A stretch of 64,000 nucleotides of DNA from a virus. The stretch covers positions 32,001 to 96,000 of IMG/VR virus record IMGVR_UViG_3300043570_001741; one strand, given 5' to 3'. Below the pieces are notes generated by a model. It did not search any database. It was not told the DNA's origin and was given only the letters and a program-made list of their open reading frames with translations. Position numbers and translations under genes: made by a program. The number at the start of each line of letters is the position of its first letter. Within the stretch, counting starts at the first letter, position 1. Positions 31,661 through 59,031 of this stretch are shown here, in pieces.

Positions 31661-32102
31661 TTGGTTACCAAATTGGATATTCTATGCGATGGGGTTAATC
31701 GGTGTATTAACCTTGGTGGTTACATATTTCATTAAGTTCTTACCAATTCCATTCGTTTACATGTACAAAACTCCATTGCAGTTGTTATCGATTGCAATGA
31801 TTGTTATTGGCACATTCATGGCTGGTGCAATATATGATAATGAAGCATGGCTTGCCCGTGTCAAAGAATTAGAAGCTCAGGTAGCTGAATCTGAAAAGAA
31901 ATCTGTCGAGAAAAATGTAGAGATAGTAGAGAAGATTGTACATAAAGAAAAAGTCATCAAAGAAAAAGGTGACGATATCATTAAGTATATTGACCGAGAA
32001 ATAGTTAAAAAAGAAGAAGTTATTAAGTACATTGAAAACTGTCCAGTACCAAAGGACATTATTGATGCACATAACGCAGCAGCTGCAATGGGTAAAAAAT
32101 GA
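31647..32102 (+). CDS. Inner-membrane spanin (Rz-like)
   Basis: N-terminal TM segments, coiled coil, C-terminal Cys; followed by a lipoprotein. Confidence 0.7.
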   Translation: MWLLNWLPNWIFYAMGLIGVLTLVVTYFIKFLPIPFVYMYKTPLQLLSIAMIVIGTFMAGAIYDNEAWLARVKELEAQVAESEKKSVEKNVEIVEKIVHKEKVIKEKGDDIIKYIDREIVKKEEVIKYIENCPVPKDIIDAHNAAAAMGKK

Positions 32103-54646: not shown

Positions 54647-54721
54647 CGCAGGTAGGTCAAGTTGACCCGAATGGTCTCATAAGCCATATCGAGAGTGGAG
54701 CGTTACCACTACCTGCAACCA
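54647..54721 (+). tRNA. Atypical tRNA-Met(CAT), initiator-like
   Basis: Cloverleaf with CCA, C1:A72 mismatch, loop CTCATAA; TATAAATA at 54629. Confidence 0.75.
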
Positions 54722-54741
54722 CATTTTTAGTATATTATAGC

Positions 54742-55191
54742 ATGTTACATTTAATAGAATCACTAACTGATAAATTTTTTGACTTGTTGAATCAAGATCC
54801 GGTACGCCCGAATATTCCACATGTGGACCGAATTGGTCCTAATAAAGATATTTTTGTTTTCCGTGATGCTGATGATAAAGTTAAAGCTATTACATGTGTG
54901 AGTTATCAACATTCAATTCCAACAAAGGAATCTGAATTATTTGAAAATACAGACACTCCTAACGTAGCCGTATTTTACACAATCTGGTCATATGTGCCAG
55001 GTGCTGGTCGTACATTGATTTTTGATGCGGTTCGCCACATTAAAGAGACAAGGCCGGAAATTACAAGATTTGTGACTTTAAGTCCAAAGACTGAAATGGC
55101 TAAACGTTTTCATACAAAGAATGGTGCAGGTGTTTATCGTGAAAACATCGAAACTGTTAATTATGAGTATGAAAAAGTGGAAAATACTTGA
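54742..55191 (+). CDS. Conserved hypothetical protein, GNAT-like
   Basis: DPVRP, FYTIWSY..GAGR, VTLSP.T.MA..FH.KNGA. Confidence 0.65.
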   Translation: MLHLIESLTDKFFDLLNQDPVRPNIPHVDRIGPNKDIFVFRDADDKVKAITCVSYQHSIPTKESELFENTDTPNVAVFYTIWSYVPGAGRTLIFDAVRHIKETRPEITRFVTLSPKTEMAKRFHTKNGAGVYRENIETVNYEYEKVENT

Positions 55192-55221
55192 CCTTTTTAC
55201 TTGTAATACTAAAGTTTACGC

Positions 55222-55250
55222 TTGACAAATACTAAATAATAGACTATAAT
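55222..55250 (+). promoter_or_regulatory. tRNA-array promoter P1
   Basis: Perfect TTGACA-17-TATAAT; CTAAATA late-like site inside the spacer. Confidence 0.9.
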
Positions 55251-55256
55251 ACACAA

Positions 55257-55385
55257 ATGATGCAAAATTTAAGACTCTCACCGATAACGCTAAGTGCTAT
55301 GTCACCGACATGGCAGGCCAACTATCGTTGTGAGAATCATGGCTTTATTGGAACATCAAAGGATCCAGCAGAGGTTTGTGTTTAG
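55257..55385 (+). CDS. Leaderless 42-aa attenuator leader peptide containing all 20 amino acids
   Basis: MMQNLRLSPITLSAMSPTWQANYRCENHGFIGTSKDPAEVCV; ATG starts 7 nt after the -10 box. Confidence 0.7.
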   Translation: MMQNLRLSPITLSAMSPTWQANYRCENHGFIGTSKDPAEVCV

Positions 55386-55452
55386 AATAAATTAGTAAAA
55401 TAGTTTTTTAATCACAAACCTCAGACCTAAAAAATCTGAGGTTTTTTGTTTT
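55371..55452 (+). terminator. Attenuator with mutually exclusive antiterminator and terminator
   Basis: GAGGTTTGTG (55371-80) pairs with CACAAACCTC (55413-22); alternatively AAACCTCAGA (55416-25) pairs with TCTGAGGTTT (55435-44), followed by a U-tract. Confidence 0.85.
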
Positions 55453-55469
55453 GGGCATCGTCCCTTTTA

Positions 55470-55495
55470 GTTCTTTAAAAATTTGTAGAGTTAAT
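55470..55495 (+). promoter_or_regulatory. boxA-like site plus leader strand of a long-range helix
   Basis: GTTCTTTAAAAA; 55477-55495 is the exact reverse complement of 58100-58118. Confidence 0.7.
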
Positions 55496-55499
55496 ATAT

Positions 55500-55573
55500 T
55501 CCCGAATGGTGTAGTGGTAGCACAGCAGACTTTGACTCTGTTAGTATAAGTTCGATTCTTATTTCGGGTGCCA
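55500..55573 (+). tRNA. tRNA-Gln(TTG)
   Basis: Cloverleaf, loop CTTTGAC, CCA. Confidence 0.9.
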
Positions 55574-55606
55574 TATAAAAACATATTGTGAAGTGTGTTT
55601 CTATAT

Positions 55607-55694
55607 GGAAGTGTGGTCGAGTGGTCTATGGCTCTAGTCTTGAAAACTAGCGATTCGAAAGGATCCGTGAGTTCGAATCTCACCGCTTCCGCCA
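55607..55694 (+). tRNA. tRNA-Ser(TGA)
   Basis: Long variable arm, loop CTTGAAA, GCCA. Confidence 0.93.
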
Positions 55695-55698
55695 AATT

Positions 55699-55787
55699 GG
55701 AGAGTGGGCAGGATGGTAATGCAGCAGATTGCTAATCTGTCATCGGATTAAACCGGTGAGTGGGTTCGATTCCCACACTCTCCGCCA
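55699..55787 (+). tRNA. tRNA-Ser(GCT)
   Basis: Long variable arm, loop TTGCTAA, GCCA. Confidence 0.92.
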
Positions 55788-55788
55788 T

Positions 55789-55864
55789 GTAGGTGTGACC
55801 TGAAAGGCTAGGGAGCGGATTGCAAATCCGTATAATGCAGGTTCGAGTCCTGTCACCTACTCCA
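55789..55864 (+). tRNA. tRNA-Cys(GCA)
   Basis: Loop TTGCAAA, U73, CCA. Confidence 0.92.
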
Positions 55865-55882
55865 TTTGAAAACAAAAGTATT

Positions 55883-55978
55883 GTTGTATAAAAACAACGA
55901 TGCTAAAATAGTTGTTGACTAAATGTGTGGTTCATGTATAATACACACATGTTATTTAAAAAGTTGTAGAGTTAATTT
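55883..55978 (+). promoter_or_regulatory. Internal tRNA-array promoter P2 with palindrome, boxA-like site and second copy of the leader strand
   Basis: GTTG-N8-CAAC 55883-98; TTGACT-16-TATAAT; GTTATTTAAAAA 55951; TTGTAGAGTTAAT 55964. Confidence 0.7.
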
Positions 55979-55980
55979 TT

Positions 55981-56055
55981 GCTCCGTTCGTCTATCGGTT
56001 AGGACGCTGCCCTTTCAAGGCGGAAAGACCAGTTCGATTCTGGTACGGAGTACCA
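55981..56055 (+). tRNA. tRNA-Glu(TTC)
   Basis: Loop CTTTCAA, CCA. Confidence 0.92.
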
Positions 56056-56176
56056 TTTGTTTTGCTGACGTAAGCGCCTGAGTAAACGTCAACTCTAACT
56101 AACTATGTACATAAACGGTAATGCTGCAGCTAATTCCGTTGAGCATAGCAAATAGTGCGTCAGCAAAACAAATGGT
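56052..56176 (+). ncRNA. Unknown structured RNA closed by a 19-bp perfect stem
   Basis: ACCATTTGTTTTGCTGACG pairs with CGTCAGCAAAACAAATGGT; inner arm CTATG/CATAG and AACGG/CCGTT. Confidence 0.65.
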
Positions 56177-56181
56177 TGTTT

Positions 56182-56256
56182 GGAGGCATAACTTAACGGC
56201 TAAAGTAACTGGCTTTTAACCAGTAAATCAGAGTTCGATTCTCTGTGCCTCTACCA
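56182..56256 (+). tRNA. tRNA-Lys(TTT)
   Basis: Loop CTTTTAA, CCA. Confidence 0.92.
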
Positions 56257-56265
56257 GTAGAATTT

Positions 56266-56350
56266 GGAGATGCCGCCGTAATGGTATGGCAGGAGACTGT
56301 AAATCTTCCGACTTAGGTCACAATAGGTTCGATCCCTATCATCTCCACCA
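56266..56350 (+). tRNA. tRNA-Tyr(GTA)
   Basis: Variable arm, loop CTGTAAA, CCA. Confidence 0.92.
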
Positions 56351-56354
56351 AATT

Positions 56355-56429
56355 GGTTTCAAAGTGTTCACGGACGCACGCTAGCTTGTCACGCTAGAAG
56401 AAGGGGATCGTTACCCCTTGAGACCGCCA
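56355..56429 (+). tRNA. tRNA-Asp(GTC)
   Basis: Loop TTGTCAC, G73; atypical T-loop ATCGTTA. Confidence 0.85.
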
Positions 56430-56438
56430 AGTTTTTAT

Positions 56439-56513
56439 TCCACAGTAGCACAGCGGTAGTGCAGTTGACTGTTAATCAATTGGTCGTAGGTTCGATCCCT
56501 GCCTGTGGAGCCA
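56439..56513 (+). tRNA. tRNA-Asn(GTT)
   Basis: Loop CTGTTAA, GCCA. Confidence 0.93.
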
Positions 56514-56518
56514 ATATC

Positions 56519-56595
56519 GGGGACGTGATGGAATTGGTATACGTGTTGGTCTTAGAAGCCAAATTTTGTGAGTTCGAGTCTCACCGTCCCCACCA
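56519..56595 (+). tRNA. tRNA-Leu(TAG) lacking the long variable arm
   Basis: Loop CTTAGAA, Leu-type D-loop, A73, 77 nt. Confidence 0.88.
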
Positions 56596-56599
56596 ATTT

Positions 56600-56673
56600 G
56601 CCCTTTTAGTATAATGGTATTACGCCTGTTTTGTAATCAGGTTACGGCAGTTCGATTCTGTCAAGGGGCACCA
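56600..56673 (+). tRNA. tRNA-Thr(TGT)
   Basis: Loop TTTGTAA, CCA. Confidence 0.92.
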
Positions 56674-56678
56674 ATTTT

Positions 56679-56752
56679 CTCGGTATAGTTTAATGGTAGA
56701 ATTCGTGGTTTGGGACCATGTGATGGAAGTTCGATTCTTCCTACCGAGACCA
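56679..56752 (+). tRNA. tRNA-Pro(TGG)
   Basis: Loop TTTGGGA, C1:G72, CCA. Confidence 0.92.
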
Positions 56753-56757
56753 GTTAT

Positions 56758-56831
56758 GGGGAATTAGTATAATGGGATTACGGCAGCTTTGCAAGTTGTT
56801 TATGGGAGTTCGATTCTCCCATTCTCCACCA
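56758..56831 (+). tRNA. tRNA-Ala(TGC)
   Basis: G3:U70, loop TTTGCAA. Confidence 0.92.
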
Positions 56832-56835
56832 TTCA

Positions 56836-56910
56836 GGTTCAGTAGCACAGCGGTAGTGCAATTGCTTCATACGCAATAGGTCGTTGGCTCGAATCCAACC
56901 TGAACCACCA
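56836..56910 (+). tRNA. tRNA-Met(CAT), probably elongator
   Basis: Loop TTCATAC, CCA. Confidence 0.85.
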
Positions 56911-56916
56911 AGTTAC

Positions 56917-56991
56917 GGGCGATTAGTAAAATGAATATTACACAAGGCTACGAACCTTGAAGTGGGAGTTTGATTCTCTCATCGCCCTCCA
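56917..56991 (+). tRNA. tRNA-Arg(ACG)
   Basis: Loop CTACGAA, CCA. Confidence 0.88.
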
Positions 56992-56992
56992 G

Positions 56993-57192
56993 AACCAGCT
57001 AAGGTAACGCTTGGCTACTGTGACACGCAGGAAGTGAAGTGAGTTCGTTACTCAAGTGTGGTACTACTCTTACCGAAGTAGCGTTGGCAATACGAGAATT
57101 CTTTTTGGTCGGGAAGCGGGTGGAAGGTACATGGGAGAGGTATGATAGCGTCATATCTTTTCGTACTATAATTACCGCCGCAGAAAGAAAGC
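56993..57192 (+). ncRNA. Unknown ~200-nt multi-hairpin RNA within the tRNA array
   Basis: GC-rich; at least five small hairpins plus a long nested arm at about 57108-57189. Confidence 0.65.
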
Positions 57193-57195
57193 AAT

Positions 57196-57270
57196 GCCGT
57201 TGTAGCTCAGAGGAAGAGCATTCGCTTGATAAGCGAAAGGCCGACATTTCGAAATTGTCCAACGGTACCA
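57196..57270 (+). tRNA. tRNA-Ile(GAT)
   Basis: Loop TTGATAA, CCA. Confidence 0.9.
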
Positions 57271-57275
57271 ATTTT

Positions 57276-57349
57276 ATCTCGCTGGTGTAATGGCAGCACG
57301 ATGGTCTCCAAAACCATTAGTCGGGGTTCGAGTCCCTGGCGGAATGCCA
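57276..57349 (+). tRNA. tRNA-Trp(CCA)
   Basis: Loop CTCCAAA, G73. Confidence 0.9.
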
Positions 57350-57368
57350 AGTTTTAAAGGTTGTCAAT

Positions 57369-57857
57369 ATGAAAAAATTCGATATAGAAGAAGTCAAACA
57401 GTTCCTTGCAAAACAAGGACCAAACACCAAAGTATATCTTGGTGCTGATTCAGAAAGAATCAGAGTGAATGAAGTTTGGTATGCTGACTACGCTTTAGCT
57501 GTTGTAGTTCATATTGATGGTTGTCATGGTTGTAAGATTTTTGGTTTTGTTGACCGTGAATTAGATTACGACCATAAAAAAAGTAAACCTGCTATGCGTC
57601 TAATGACAGAGGTGTACAAGGTTTCAGAATTGTTCCAATCACTACAGGATGTGTTGGAAGATTATCATGTTGAAGTCCATTTGGACTTAAATAAATCAGA
57701 TGAGTTCGGTAGTTCTTGTGTTGTTCAGCAAGCAATTGGTTATATCAAAGGTACATGTAACATGACACCAATGGTTAAACCTGATGCACCTGCGGCTTCA
57801 TTCTGTGCAGACCGTTTAAAACGGATTCTAGCAGAACAAGAATTGTCAACTATATAA
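57369..57857 (+). CDS. YkuK/DUF458 RNase H-fold protein
   Basis: Y.G.DS, R...EV, EVHLD.N, KP.A.AAS..AD. Confidence 0.75.
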   Translation: MKKFDIEEVKQFLAKQGPNTKVYLGADSERIRVNEVWYADYALAVVVHIDGCHGCKIFGFVDRELDYDHKKSKPAMRLMTEVYKVSELFQSLQDVLEDYHVEVHLDLNKSDEFGSSCVVQQAIGYIKGTCNMTPMVKPDAPAASFCADRLKRILAEQELSTI

Positions 57858-57863
57858 AAATAT

Positions 57864-57937
57864 GCGGGATTAGTTTAGGGGCAAAACAGCAGATTTCCAA
57901 TCTTCGGTCATCGGTTCGATTCCGATATCCCGCTCCA
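57864..57937 (+). tRNA. tRNA-Gly(TCC)
   Basis: GCG...CGC U73 CCA, loop TTTCCAA. Confidence 0.9.
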
Positions 57938-57943
57938 GTCAAT

Positions 57944-58019
57944 GCAGTTGTTAGTGTAAAGGTTAACACCACGGATTGTGATTCCGTTAATATGGGTTCG
58001 ATTCCCATACTTCTGCCCA
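57944..58019 (+). tRNA. tRNA-His(GTG)
   Basis: G-1:C73, loop TTGTGAT; two U:U pairs in the acceptor stem. Confidence 0.87.
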
Positions 58020-58023
58020 ATTC

Positions 58024-58098
58024 ACATCGTTAGCTCAGCGGTAGAGCAGGGCCCTTACAAGGCCAAGGTCAAAAGTTCAATCCTTTTACGATGTACCA
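58024..58098 (+). tRNA. tRNA-Val(TAC)
   Basis: Loop CTTACAA, CCA. Confidence 0.92.
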
Positions 58099-58118
58099 AA
58101 TTAACTCTACAAATTTTT

Positions 58119-58193
58119 CTGGCCTTAGTATAATGGATAATACAGTTGCCTTCTAAGCAATCAATACAGGTTCGATTCCTGTAGGCCGGGCCA
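58119..58193 (+). tRNA. tRNA-Arg(TCT)
   Basis: Loop CTTCTAA, A20, GCCA. Confidence 0.92.
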
Positions 58194-58198
58194 ATTAC

Positions 58199-58274
58199 AC
58201 GCTTGTAGCTCAATGGTTAGAGCAGGAAACTCATAATTTCTTGGTTGGGGGTTCGAGTCCCTTCGAGCGTACCA
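58199..58274 (+). tRNA. tRNA(CAT), probably Ile2 (lysidine type)
   Basis: TAGCTCA.TGGTTAGAGCAGG...CTCATAA...CTTGGT resembles bacterial Ile2. Confidence 0.85.
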
Positions 58275-58284
58275 TATATAATTA

Positions 58285-59031
58285 ATGTCCGTGAAAAATC
58301 TAATCTTTTCATTTCTACTGTTAACAACAAATGCCTTTGGTGTGAGTTTAACTGCTCACACTTGGTTAGTTGCGGATGGTGACGGTAGAATCATACAAAG
58401 TGAAAATGGCCAAGAACTAAGGTCGATTGCCAGTATCACTAAACTTATGACTGCAATGGTCATAATAGATGCTGGTCAGAATCCAAAAGAGAAACTCGGA
58501 AATTTAACAAGAGAGCAACATATTCAAATGGCTCTTGTTATGTCAAGCAATGAATCTGCTATTACTTTATGTGATAATTATCCAGGTGGTAAATCAAGTT
58601 GTATTAGGGATATGAATTCTAAAGCTGTTGCTATGAATATGCCTAACACCAAATTTGTTGAAGCATCTGGACTAAGTCCGATGAATATCAGTACAGGAAA
58701 AGATTTGATTGAATTGGTGCTTGCTGCAAGTTATTATCCCGATATCATTCAGGCTAGTAAAACTGCTCAAGTGAAGATTCAAGTTAAAAAGAAGTGGTTC
58801 TTTTTCAACAATACGAATCCAATTATTGGTAAACGCCACGATTTCATAGTAAGTAAAACAGGATGGACAAATGCGGCCGGTGGTTGTATCGTAATGTTAT
58901 TGGATACTGATATTGGCCGCAGGCTTGTTGTGGTACTCGGTTCTAAGAATACTAGAACACGAATACCAGAAGCTGAGTTTATTGCTTTACAGAATAATTG
59001 GCAACCACAACCAAATACCTTGGCTCATTAA
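58285..59031 (+). CDS. Peptidase S11 D-Ala-D-Ala carboxy/endopeptidase (PbpG-like)
   Basis: Signal peptide; SITK, SSN and KTG motifs. Confidence 0.9.
   Translation: MSVKNLIFSFLLLTTNAFGVSLTAHTWLVADGDGRIIQSENGQELRSIASITKLMTAMVIIDAGQNPKEKLGNLTREQHIQMALVMSSNESAITLCDNYPGGKSSCIRDMNSKAVAMNMPNTKFVEASGLSPMNISTGKDLIELVLAASYYPDIIQASKTAQVKIQVKKKWFFFNNTNPIIGKRHDFIVSKTGWTNAAGGCIVMLLDTDIGRRLVVVLGSKNTRTRIPEAEFIALQNNWQPQPNTLAH

Follow-up and report, generated by a model that had tools for sequence, protein, structure and literature searches.

In the classical leader peptides of transcription attenuators (trpL, hisL, leuL, thrL and pheL, together with the multivalent leader of ilvGMEDA) one to three cognate amino acids occur in runs; these leaders stand before genes for biosynthetic enzymes, and the four RNA segments of these attenuators cause untranslated transcripts to terminate. 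T-boxes bind one uncharged tRNA directly, independently of translation, and control synthetase or amino-acid genes. In mycobacteria, efficient translation of the upstream open reading frame (uORF) of whiB7 leads to termination and stalling leads to read-through (PMC10274678). The uORF of Mycobacterium smegmatis whiB7 contains 19 of the 20 amino acids, and without its only Trp codon it responds less strongly when Trp is withheld (PMC10274678). A boxA consensus, GYTCTTTAANA, has been derived for NusB/NusE-dependent antitermination (PMC5725501). Here we describe an element in a 64,000-nucleotide stretch of viral DNA (IMG/VR record IMGVR_UViG_3300043570_001741, positions 32,001 to 96,000; hereafter the window), in which a short open reading frame (ORF) with all 20 amino acids, a terminator and a competing antiterminator precede an array of 22 phage tRNA genes. 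On comparative sequence evidence we find it reasonably probable that this is a ribosome-mediated (leader-peptide) transcription attenuator, the leader of which mirrors the tRNA repertoire that it gates.

The window comes from a viral metagenome record of 157.7 kb, which is ∼95% complete. Because the record encodes a family-B DNA polymerase, a DnaB-type helicase and a ribonucleotide reductase, the phage appears to be of the large, T4-like kind; no close relative was found in the cultured-phage collection. An earlier annotation of the letters alone (the original prediction) had proposed an attenuator at this locus, and its statements about the sequence were all correct, with each feature lying where it had been placed. 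The features of the element and of the array behind it are as follows.

55222–55250, plus strand: promoter P1, with −35 TTGACA at 55222–27, a 17-nt spacer and −10 TATAAT at 55245–50; consensus match 12/12.
55257–55385, plus strand: leader ORF of 42 codons followed by TAG at 55383–85; all 20 amino acids; leaderless.
55296–55314, plus strand: hairpin within the ORF, found by folding; 7 bp, arms 55296–302 and 55308–314.
55371–55380, plus strand: arm A, the antiterminator 5′ strand, made of the final ORF codons (39–42); perfect 10-bp complement of 55413–22.
55413–55422, plus strand: arm B, the antiterminator 3′ strand; 55416–22 is common to the terminator 5′ arm.
55416–55447, plus strand: intrinsic terminator, stem 55416–25/55435–44 followed by a T-run.
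55453–55464, plus strand: small hairpin in a boxB-like position between terminator and boxA, read from the sequence.
55470–55480, plus strand: boxA GTTCTTTAAAA, a perfect GYTCTTTAANA match ∼22 nt past the terminator.
55500–58274, plus strand: tRNA array of 22 genes (ARAGORN, Rfam tRNA matches, Pfam); 19 amino-acid types, no Phe.

This anatomy is directly supported. P1 is the sole 12/12 match to the sigma-70 consensus in the region, and the A of the leader ATG, at 55257, is the 7th base past its −10 hexamer, at the expected transcription start and with no Shine-Dalgarno sequence upstream, exactly as had been described. The diversity claimed for the ORF was borne out as well: its translation contains every amino acid, codons 19–40 supply 18 residue types, and all the synonymous codon pairs that had been named are there. 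Likewise, the perfect pairing of 55371–80 with 55413–22, overlapping the 5′ arm of a terminator, and the 22 tRNA genes downstream were recovered as predicted.

The arrangement suggests the following course of events. Host RNA polymerase would start at P1, on or next to the leader ATG, and a 70S ribosome would load on the leaderless RNA and trail the polymerase. Arm A, in the last codons, would be able to pair with arm B, which is the 5′ half of the terminator. A ribosome keeping pace to the stop codon would cover arm A, so that arm B would close the terminator and an RNA of ∼190 nt would be released. If the ribosome lagged at a slow codon far enough upstream, through scarcity of an aminoacyl-tRNA, or if none had loaded, arm A would pair with arm B and no terminator would form; the polymerase would then read on, gain Nus factors at boxA and transcribe the tRNA genes, the products of which would relieve the sensed shortage. 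Such an array probably yields more tRNA when ribosomes read any codon slowly. In this scheme we infer the translation of the ORF, the outcome of each ribosome position, the action of the Nus factors and the natural inducing signal.

Relatives of the leader were gathered by four kinds of search: near-identical contigs, a nucleotide profile search, pattern scans and a boxA-anchored scan. Three near-identical contigs carry the same leader in the same place. The profile search, applied to fetched loci, gave diverged leaders at the 5′ end of other phages' tRNA arrays, and the pattern scans of viral and metagenome collections gave, among the matches listed, further diverged copies. The scan with the boxA motif only furnished an independent sample of array starts. 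The set examined comprises 33 leaders of 31–47 codons, which fall into 19 clusters at 45% identity, many of them mutually unalignable.

The conservation of the ORF and of its start signals is seen throughout this set. In the leader family of the window (core TWQA[ND]YR ... EN.G), which has at least 18 distinct variants, L168 included, among the matches listed, the frame is intact in 18/18; the internal length differences of these ORFs are 3, 3, 9 and 12 nt, and the untranslated spacer after the stop codon varies freely. Upstream of the leader relatives a GCTTGAC...TATAAT promoter stands at the equivalent place, the exception being L007, which has a late-type TATAAATA promoter. In almost all lineages the ATG lies 6–10 nt past the −10 hexamer. 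L007 has, behind its late-type promoter, a purine-rich Shine-Dalgarno-like stretch with an ATG or GTG start, and L230 has AAGGA and a GTG start instead of the leaderless ATG. Every arrangement found was one of these two kinds, a leaderless ATG or a Shine-Dalgarno sequence with ATG or GTG, from either of which a leader peptide could be translated. Furthermore, leaders identified through nucleotide similarity, or solely through the position of boxA, with the reading frame ignored, also had the ORF. On these comparisons the leader ORF behaves as coding sequence.

Cultured-phage records searched by blastn with three different leaders gave tRNA matches only, and a profile search with the alignment of leader peptides returned already known members only. 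Scanning 185,579 bacterial genomes for the TWQA[ND]YR pattern gave chance matches in other frames or genes, with no host or prophage copy.

The RNA was examined for two mutually exclusive states. When the whole transcript is folded to its minimum energy, the antiterminator is present (−55.5 kcal/mol, z = −4.2 relative to shuffled sequences); when the ORF end is blocked, to mimic a ribosome standing on the stop codon, the terminator forms (−12.2 kcal/mol). Comparison between lineages relied on duplex energies calculated for each sequence, in place of column-wise pair counts, because MAFFT alignments put the arms one column out of register from lineage to lineage. For 29 leaders (13 from the first set and 16 from the boxA set), the 3′-terminal 40 nt of the ORF were paired with the terminator 5′ arm and the 12 nt of flank upstream of it, with shuffled ORF ends as the control. 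For the window the A:B duplex reached −19.9 kcal/mol, compared with −6.5 ± 2.0 kcal/mol for shuffled ends (z = −6.6), and in 27 of the 29 leaders the duplex was far stronger than the control (z = −2.4 to −6.6), the weak ones being L012 (z = −1.6) and L007 (z = −0.9). All 29 leaders have an intrinsic terminator between ORF and tRNAs, and the antiterminator duplex (−15 to −27 kcal/mol) is usually stabler than that terminator (−10 to −18 kcal/mol).

Moreover, the pairing extends beyond the terminator itself. Among the 13 leaders in which flank pairs were counted, 12 have 3–11 of them in the duplex, beyond the terminator stem, and the flank covaries with arm A between lineages (UUUGUG/CACAAA, UUUUUGAA/UUCAAAAA, UUUUGG/CCAAAA, GUCC/GGAC). 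Arm B uses the 5′ arm of the terminator and arm A lies within the reach of a translating ribosome, an arrangement in which the two structures exclude one another. The original prediction had looked to covarying helices and a fixed stop position in relatives as signs of an attenuator; the covariation of the arm B flank with arm A agrees with it. Measured from the first base of the stop codon, the end of the arm A core ranges from 19 nt before to 5 nt past, and helices extended beyond this core run up to 18 nt past the stop.

Within the ORF, the hairpin at 55296–55314 shows compensatory changes at two pairs; 88% of alignment cells pair, compared with 27–50% in slid controls, and a mismatch is seen in six sequences of one group. 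It may serve as an RNA polymerase pause hairpin. These compensatory changes, together with a transcript that folds better than its shuffles, are also what would be expected of a structured non-coding RNA in which the open frame is incidental. We hold this to be very improbable: the frame, the start position and indels in multiples of three survive about 60% nucleotide divergence, a Shine-Dalgarno sequence substitutes for the leaderless start in some relatives, the amino-acid statistics given below run contrary to it, and no Rfam family, T-box included, was matched at E ≤ 1 over 55200–55500.

The amino-acid content of the leaders provides a second line of evidence for the attenuator. In this one genome the all-20 composition is not significant: all 20 amino acids occur in 0.46% of the 42-residue windows of its long ORFs, a frequency that the original prediction had wished to see computed, and in 3 of its 164 small ORFs of 40–50 residues. 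The case therefore rests on the relatives, and it is only through them that the composition becomes significant. Twenty types are found in 27 of the 33 leaders and 19 types in the other six, which lack Val in three cases and Arg, Gln or Gly in one case each; all-20 members occur in 15 of the 19 clusters. Random peptides of equal lengths, drawn with the proteome composition of this phage, have a mean of 15–17 types, and the probability of the observed type count is 0.0003–0.06 per leader (≤0.044 under the leaders' own pooled composition). The shortest cases are two all-20 leaders of 32 codons and a 31-codon leader with 19 types. A conserved short ORF of high amino-acid diversity had been expected in related phages, and it is indeed conserved, keeping 19–20 types even though many of the peptides cannot be aligned with one another.

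The way in which this content is maintained is visible in the rare residues (His, Cys, Asp, Pro and Trp), which shift position between lineages rather than vanish. Within the alignable family His is found at position 7–8 or in EN[H]G, Cys in TL[C] or [C]EN, and Asp in QA[D]YR or elsewhere; Pro relocates between two sites by way of an intermediate variant that holds both, and in a more distant homologue Trp is gone from the core and present again downstream. When residues were redrawn, with the positions shared with the window peptide held fixed, all 20 amino acids were obtained in 3–11% of trials per lineage. One variant of the window family, L130:623–748, has its sole His codon changed to Tyr by a single C-to-T substitution, and is the only one among the matches listed that lacks an amino acid; the loss reflects either natural variation or an error in sequencing.

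An unbiased enumeration of ATG ORFs of 30–55 codons in 906 kb of related loci gave 2623 ORFs and 29 distinct all-20 peptides. Those lying <250 nt upstream of a tRNA on the same strand were the leaders, and the others were scattered and mostly longer intragenic frames. In the boxA-anchored sample, automatic scoring of 98 regions gave 11 all-20 ORFs upstream compared with 0 on the reverse strand; after reading by eye, 27 array starts comprised 16 with all-20 leaders, 6 with 19-type leaders and 5 with none. Taken together, the comparisons indicate that the full amino-acid set is under selection.

The third line of evidence is the match between leader and array. The array in the window supplies tRNAs for 19 amino acids, and we propose that this near-complete supply is the reason why every amino acid is represented in the leader. 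The whole record has 23 tRNAs for 19 amino acids (window positions 54647–58274). Three tRNAs of the record have a CAT anticodon and ATA is used in the leader; one of the three may be an Ile2-type reader of ATA.

Short leaders of 21–22 codons had been considered as counter-examples to a complete set and were rejected as such, their amino-acid sets matching their partial arrays. They form a sister family (L057, L045, L074 and L051) in which a leaderless ORF with 9–12 amino-acid types is followed by a terminator and by tRNAs for 8–10 types. The array types present in the leader amount to 9/10, 10/10 and 7/8, with hypergeometric P (Met set aside) of about 0.005, 0.0006 and 0.001. In a sister lineage with an array lacking tRNA-Pro, every Pro codon of the leader has been replaced, and the Leu and Gly codons agree with the anticodons that are present. 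Hence leaders with 19–20 types stand before near-complete arrays and leaders with 9–12 types before matching arrays, with no codon runs in either.

Codon choice follows the same direction. Among the leaders followed by 10 or more tRNAs (21 leaders, 765 codons), tRNAs of the array can read 541 codons under strict wobble, compared with 509 expected from synonymous usage (z = 3.8, a value somewhat inflated by related leaders). The tRNAs that the phage encodes can read 33 of the 42 codons of the leader in the window, and 67% of the codons in the long ORFs of the genome. The matching of repertoires is directly supported by these counts, and its best reading would be that the leader mirrors, or audits, the tRNA repertoire that it gates.

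The same attenuator hardware might instead report general translation capacity (ribosome availability, host shut-off, infection stage or leaderless initiation), with the ORF acting as an average speedometer. That the efficiency of leaderless initiation is itself condition-dependent speaks for this, as do the use of one to three codons per amino acid without runs and the default fold of the ribosome-free RNA, which favours read-through in this phage; whiB7, too, responds to general translation stress (PMC10274678). A speedometer, however, requires neither a complete amino-acid set nor the match of partial leaders to partial arrays, and it does not predict a codon bias towards the tRNAs of the array. 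We regard it as rather unlikely.

Several observations weigh against an attenuator that audits its array. The leader includes a Phe codon although the phage has no tRNA-Phe, none being found in the whole 157.7-kb record, and 5 of the 27 array starts in the boxA sample lack such a leader. The stop codon of some relatives lies 12–19 nt past arm A, so that a terminating ribosome would not cover the arm; timing, rather than occupancy at the stop, must therefore matter there. In the leader of the window Val is confined to arm A, and Lys and Asp to codons 35–36, 4–5 codons before it; a stall at any of these should therefore favour termination, not read-through. This leaves 17 of the 20 types placed so that a stall would keep arm A free (>4 codons upstream), compared with 17–20 sensing-competent types in relatives. 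The original prediction had proposed a sensor of almost any tRNA, and this proposal is partly supported, by the ORF, its repertoire, the antiterminator and terminator, and the matching of arrays in relatives; it would not extend to Val, nor in this phage to Lys and Asp, which lie only in or next to the masking arm. In some lineages, and not in others, arm A can alternatively pair with the 5′ part of the ORF, resembling the fourth segment of trp, and untranslated transcripts may therefore either read through or terminate. Finally, there are promoters beyond the leader: a second promoter (P2) after the fourth tRNA bypasses the switch for 18 of the 22 tRNAs (5–22), and 12 of 16 relatives have a promoter between terminator and boxA, so that the leader unit could act alone.

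The bypass had been raised as a caveat in the original prediction, which placed an internal promoter at 55915–42; it is real as a consensus match. Two features lie inside the array.

55915–55961, plus strand: promoter P2 with a degenerate boxA; TTGACT-16-TATAAT at 55915–42 (11/12 match), boxA-like sequence at 55951–61 with C4 changed to A.
57369–57857, plus strand: RNase H-like gene (Pfam PF04308) within the tRNA array.

The region 55915–55985 has a P1-like TATAATACACA.ATG, a boxA-like GTTATTTAAAA and a shared TTGTAGAGTTAAT before the next tRNA, and a mini-ORF of 6 codons remains. P2 looks like a copy of P1 minus the leader, joined straight to a degenerate boxA.

The boxA at 55470–80 is the only consensus match inside the array of this genome. 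In relatives a boxA before the first tRNA is kept, in one case with the rrn-like form GCTCTTTAACAA. Long tRNA operons, being untranslated, have to be shielded from Rho, and polymerases that have passed the terminator are therefore probably modified by Nus factors at this candidate boxA. Two architectures were found. In the first, which is that of the window and several relatives, ∼22 nt with no promoter separate the terminator from boxA; in the second, a sigma-70-type promoter occupies a gap of ∼60 nt, as in the 12 of 16 boxA-sample leaders and in L011, L012, L020, L052 and L007. The small hairpin between terminator and boxA (55453–55464) has a loop, CATCGT, that is kept in L056 (about 640–655) despite an unrelated leader, with the stem changed from GGG/CCC to GGC/GCC. 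In L262, L263 and L293, which match boxA and have no such leader, a conserved hairpin and T-run precede boxA ∼80 nt upstream of the first tRNA; these arrays, with their different promoter context, may be under another type of control.

P2 in the window, and the promoter between terminator and boxA in most relatives, raise the question of whether the promoter, small ORF and terminator are an independent early gene, for a micro-protein or a trans-acting RNA, with the tRNAs transcribed from other promoters. The peptide core conserved within one family would fit such a gene, and in Sinorhizobium attenuator RNAs and leader peptides are reported to be capable of acting in trans. An independent gene nevertheless does not explain why the peptides of different clusters are unalignable and yet all hold 19–20 types; a plain terminator needs neither a 5′ flank that pairs with the ORF end nor one that covaries with it; and just those ∼22 promoterless nt lie between terminator and boxA in the window and several relatives. 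We consider this explanation improbable. For the attenuator, the second promoters would restrict what the switch controls, and they imply that the leader would supplement constitutive transcription with a conditional stream, much as in tandem rrn promoters.

What natural signal the switch might serve was also considered. Phage tRNAs counter tRNA-cleaving defences, and the original prediction had seen here an inducible counter-defence, in which a host anticodon nuclease would cleave a tRNA, ribosomes would stall on the leader and the array would be turned on. The hardware of the switch and the near-complete tRNA set are compatible with it. The sequence, on the other hand, gives no pointer to nucleases over supply and demand (phage codon usage, host tRNA decay in infection), and P2 would express most of the tRNAs constitutively. 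We offer the idea as a speculation that is doubtful at present.

Beside the array lie genes of other kinds. Directly upstream of the element, at 54742–55191, is a gene for a 149-residue protein with >500 relatives in viral contigs, nearly always in or beside tRNA arrays. Among cultured phages, tblastn gave one distant match, to a homologue of 36% identity in Pelagibacter phage Mosig; Pfam gave a sub-threshold match only, to the C-terminal domain of malonyl-CoA decarboxylase (an acyltransferase-like fold). The product may be a tRNA-related enzyme. Directly after the array is a gene for a D-Ala-D-Ala carboxypeptidase (Peptidase_S11, 58285–59031). In two contigs of jumbo phages (262 and 345 kb), L061:642–770 and L062, the next gene after a 43-codon all-20 leader, an antiterminator and a terminator codes for a protein and has a Shine-Dalgarno sequence, and the tRNAs come 440 nt further on.

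The reasons for which phages carry tRNA genes, and the uses to which these are put, are still under active study; the roles proposed include compensation for codon usage, substitution for a host tRNA pool that has been degraded, and evasion of tRNA-cleaving defences. If the attenuator operates as proposed, phage tRNAs would be expressed according to demand, with the ribosome itself providing the read-out, and leader-peptide attenuation would extend from the supply of amino acids to the supply of tRNAs. The element would be a compact natural sensor for the decoding of all 20 amino acids and may serve as a tool. The comparative set of 33 leaders in 19 clusters, with the matched family of partial repertoire, yields predictions that can be falsified. 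It is conceivable, if unlikely on the present comparisons, that many large phages run their tRNA genes on demand through such a minimal audit ORF, of as few as 31–32 codons and with each amino acid served by the array, that would gauge the decoding of every codon class and open the terminator as soon as one of them is slow, with a self-tuning supply that is also an inducible answer to tRNA cleavage. Our full-text literature search found no leader-peptide control of tRNA genes and no phage leader with all amino acids, which is an absence within the literature searched and not a proof. The original prediction knew of no similar description; this agrees with our search as regards phage tRNA genes, and has to be qualified by the whiB7 uORF, which is a tested broad sensor of amino acids (PMC10274678).

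Compared with the systems described at the outset, the element appears, from its structure, to belong to the class of leader-peptide attenuators. It shares with the classical examples a short leader ORF, a terminator overlapping an antiterminator, a choice made by the position of the ribosome, and genes that relieve the sensed shortage; it differs from them in having one to three codons per amino acid, tRNA genes as its targets and a clear three-segment design. With T-boxes it has in common the sensing of tRNA status and the choice between terminator and antiterminator, and by its sequence it is not a T-box. The boxA at 55470–80 agrees with the rrn-type consensus and, as in rrn operons, this perfect GYTCTTTAANA lies near the promoter-proximal part of a long untranslated RNA operon with a small hairpin before it. 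In contrast to the rrn-type boxA (NusB/NusE/NusA/NusG/SuhB), it stands before a phage tRNA array, downstream of a conditional terminator, and no boxC was identified.

The attenuator reading appears well supported by the comparative evidence and by experimental precedent, the closest tested analogue being whiB7, which by analogy proves that a design based on single codons is workable. Both have a promoter-proximal uORF of diverse composition, a rho-independent terminator and a competing antiterminator, and in both the amino acids sensed would be those present in the ORF. The whiB7 attenuator controls a bacterial transcription factor, and its uORF is Ala-rich, longer and not selected for a complete set; the element described here has 31–47 codons with 19–20 types, is mostly leaderless, precedes phage tRNA genes with a boxA after the terminator and mirrors their repertoire. 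Its downstream genes are tRNAs, and Ala makes up 5.6% of the pooled leader residues. By these comparisons the element seems to work like the whiB7 leader without being a member of its family.

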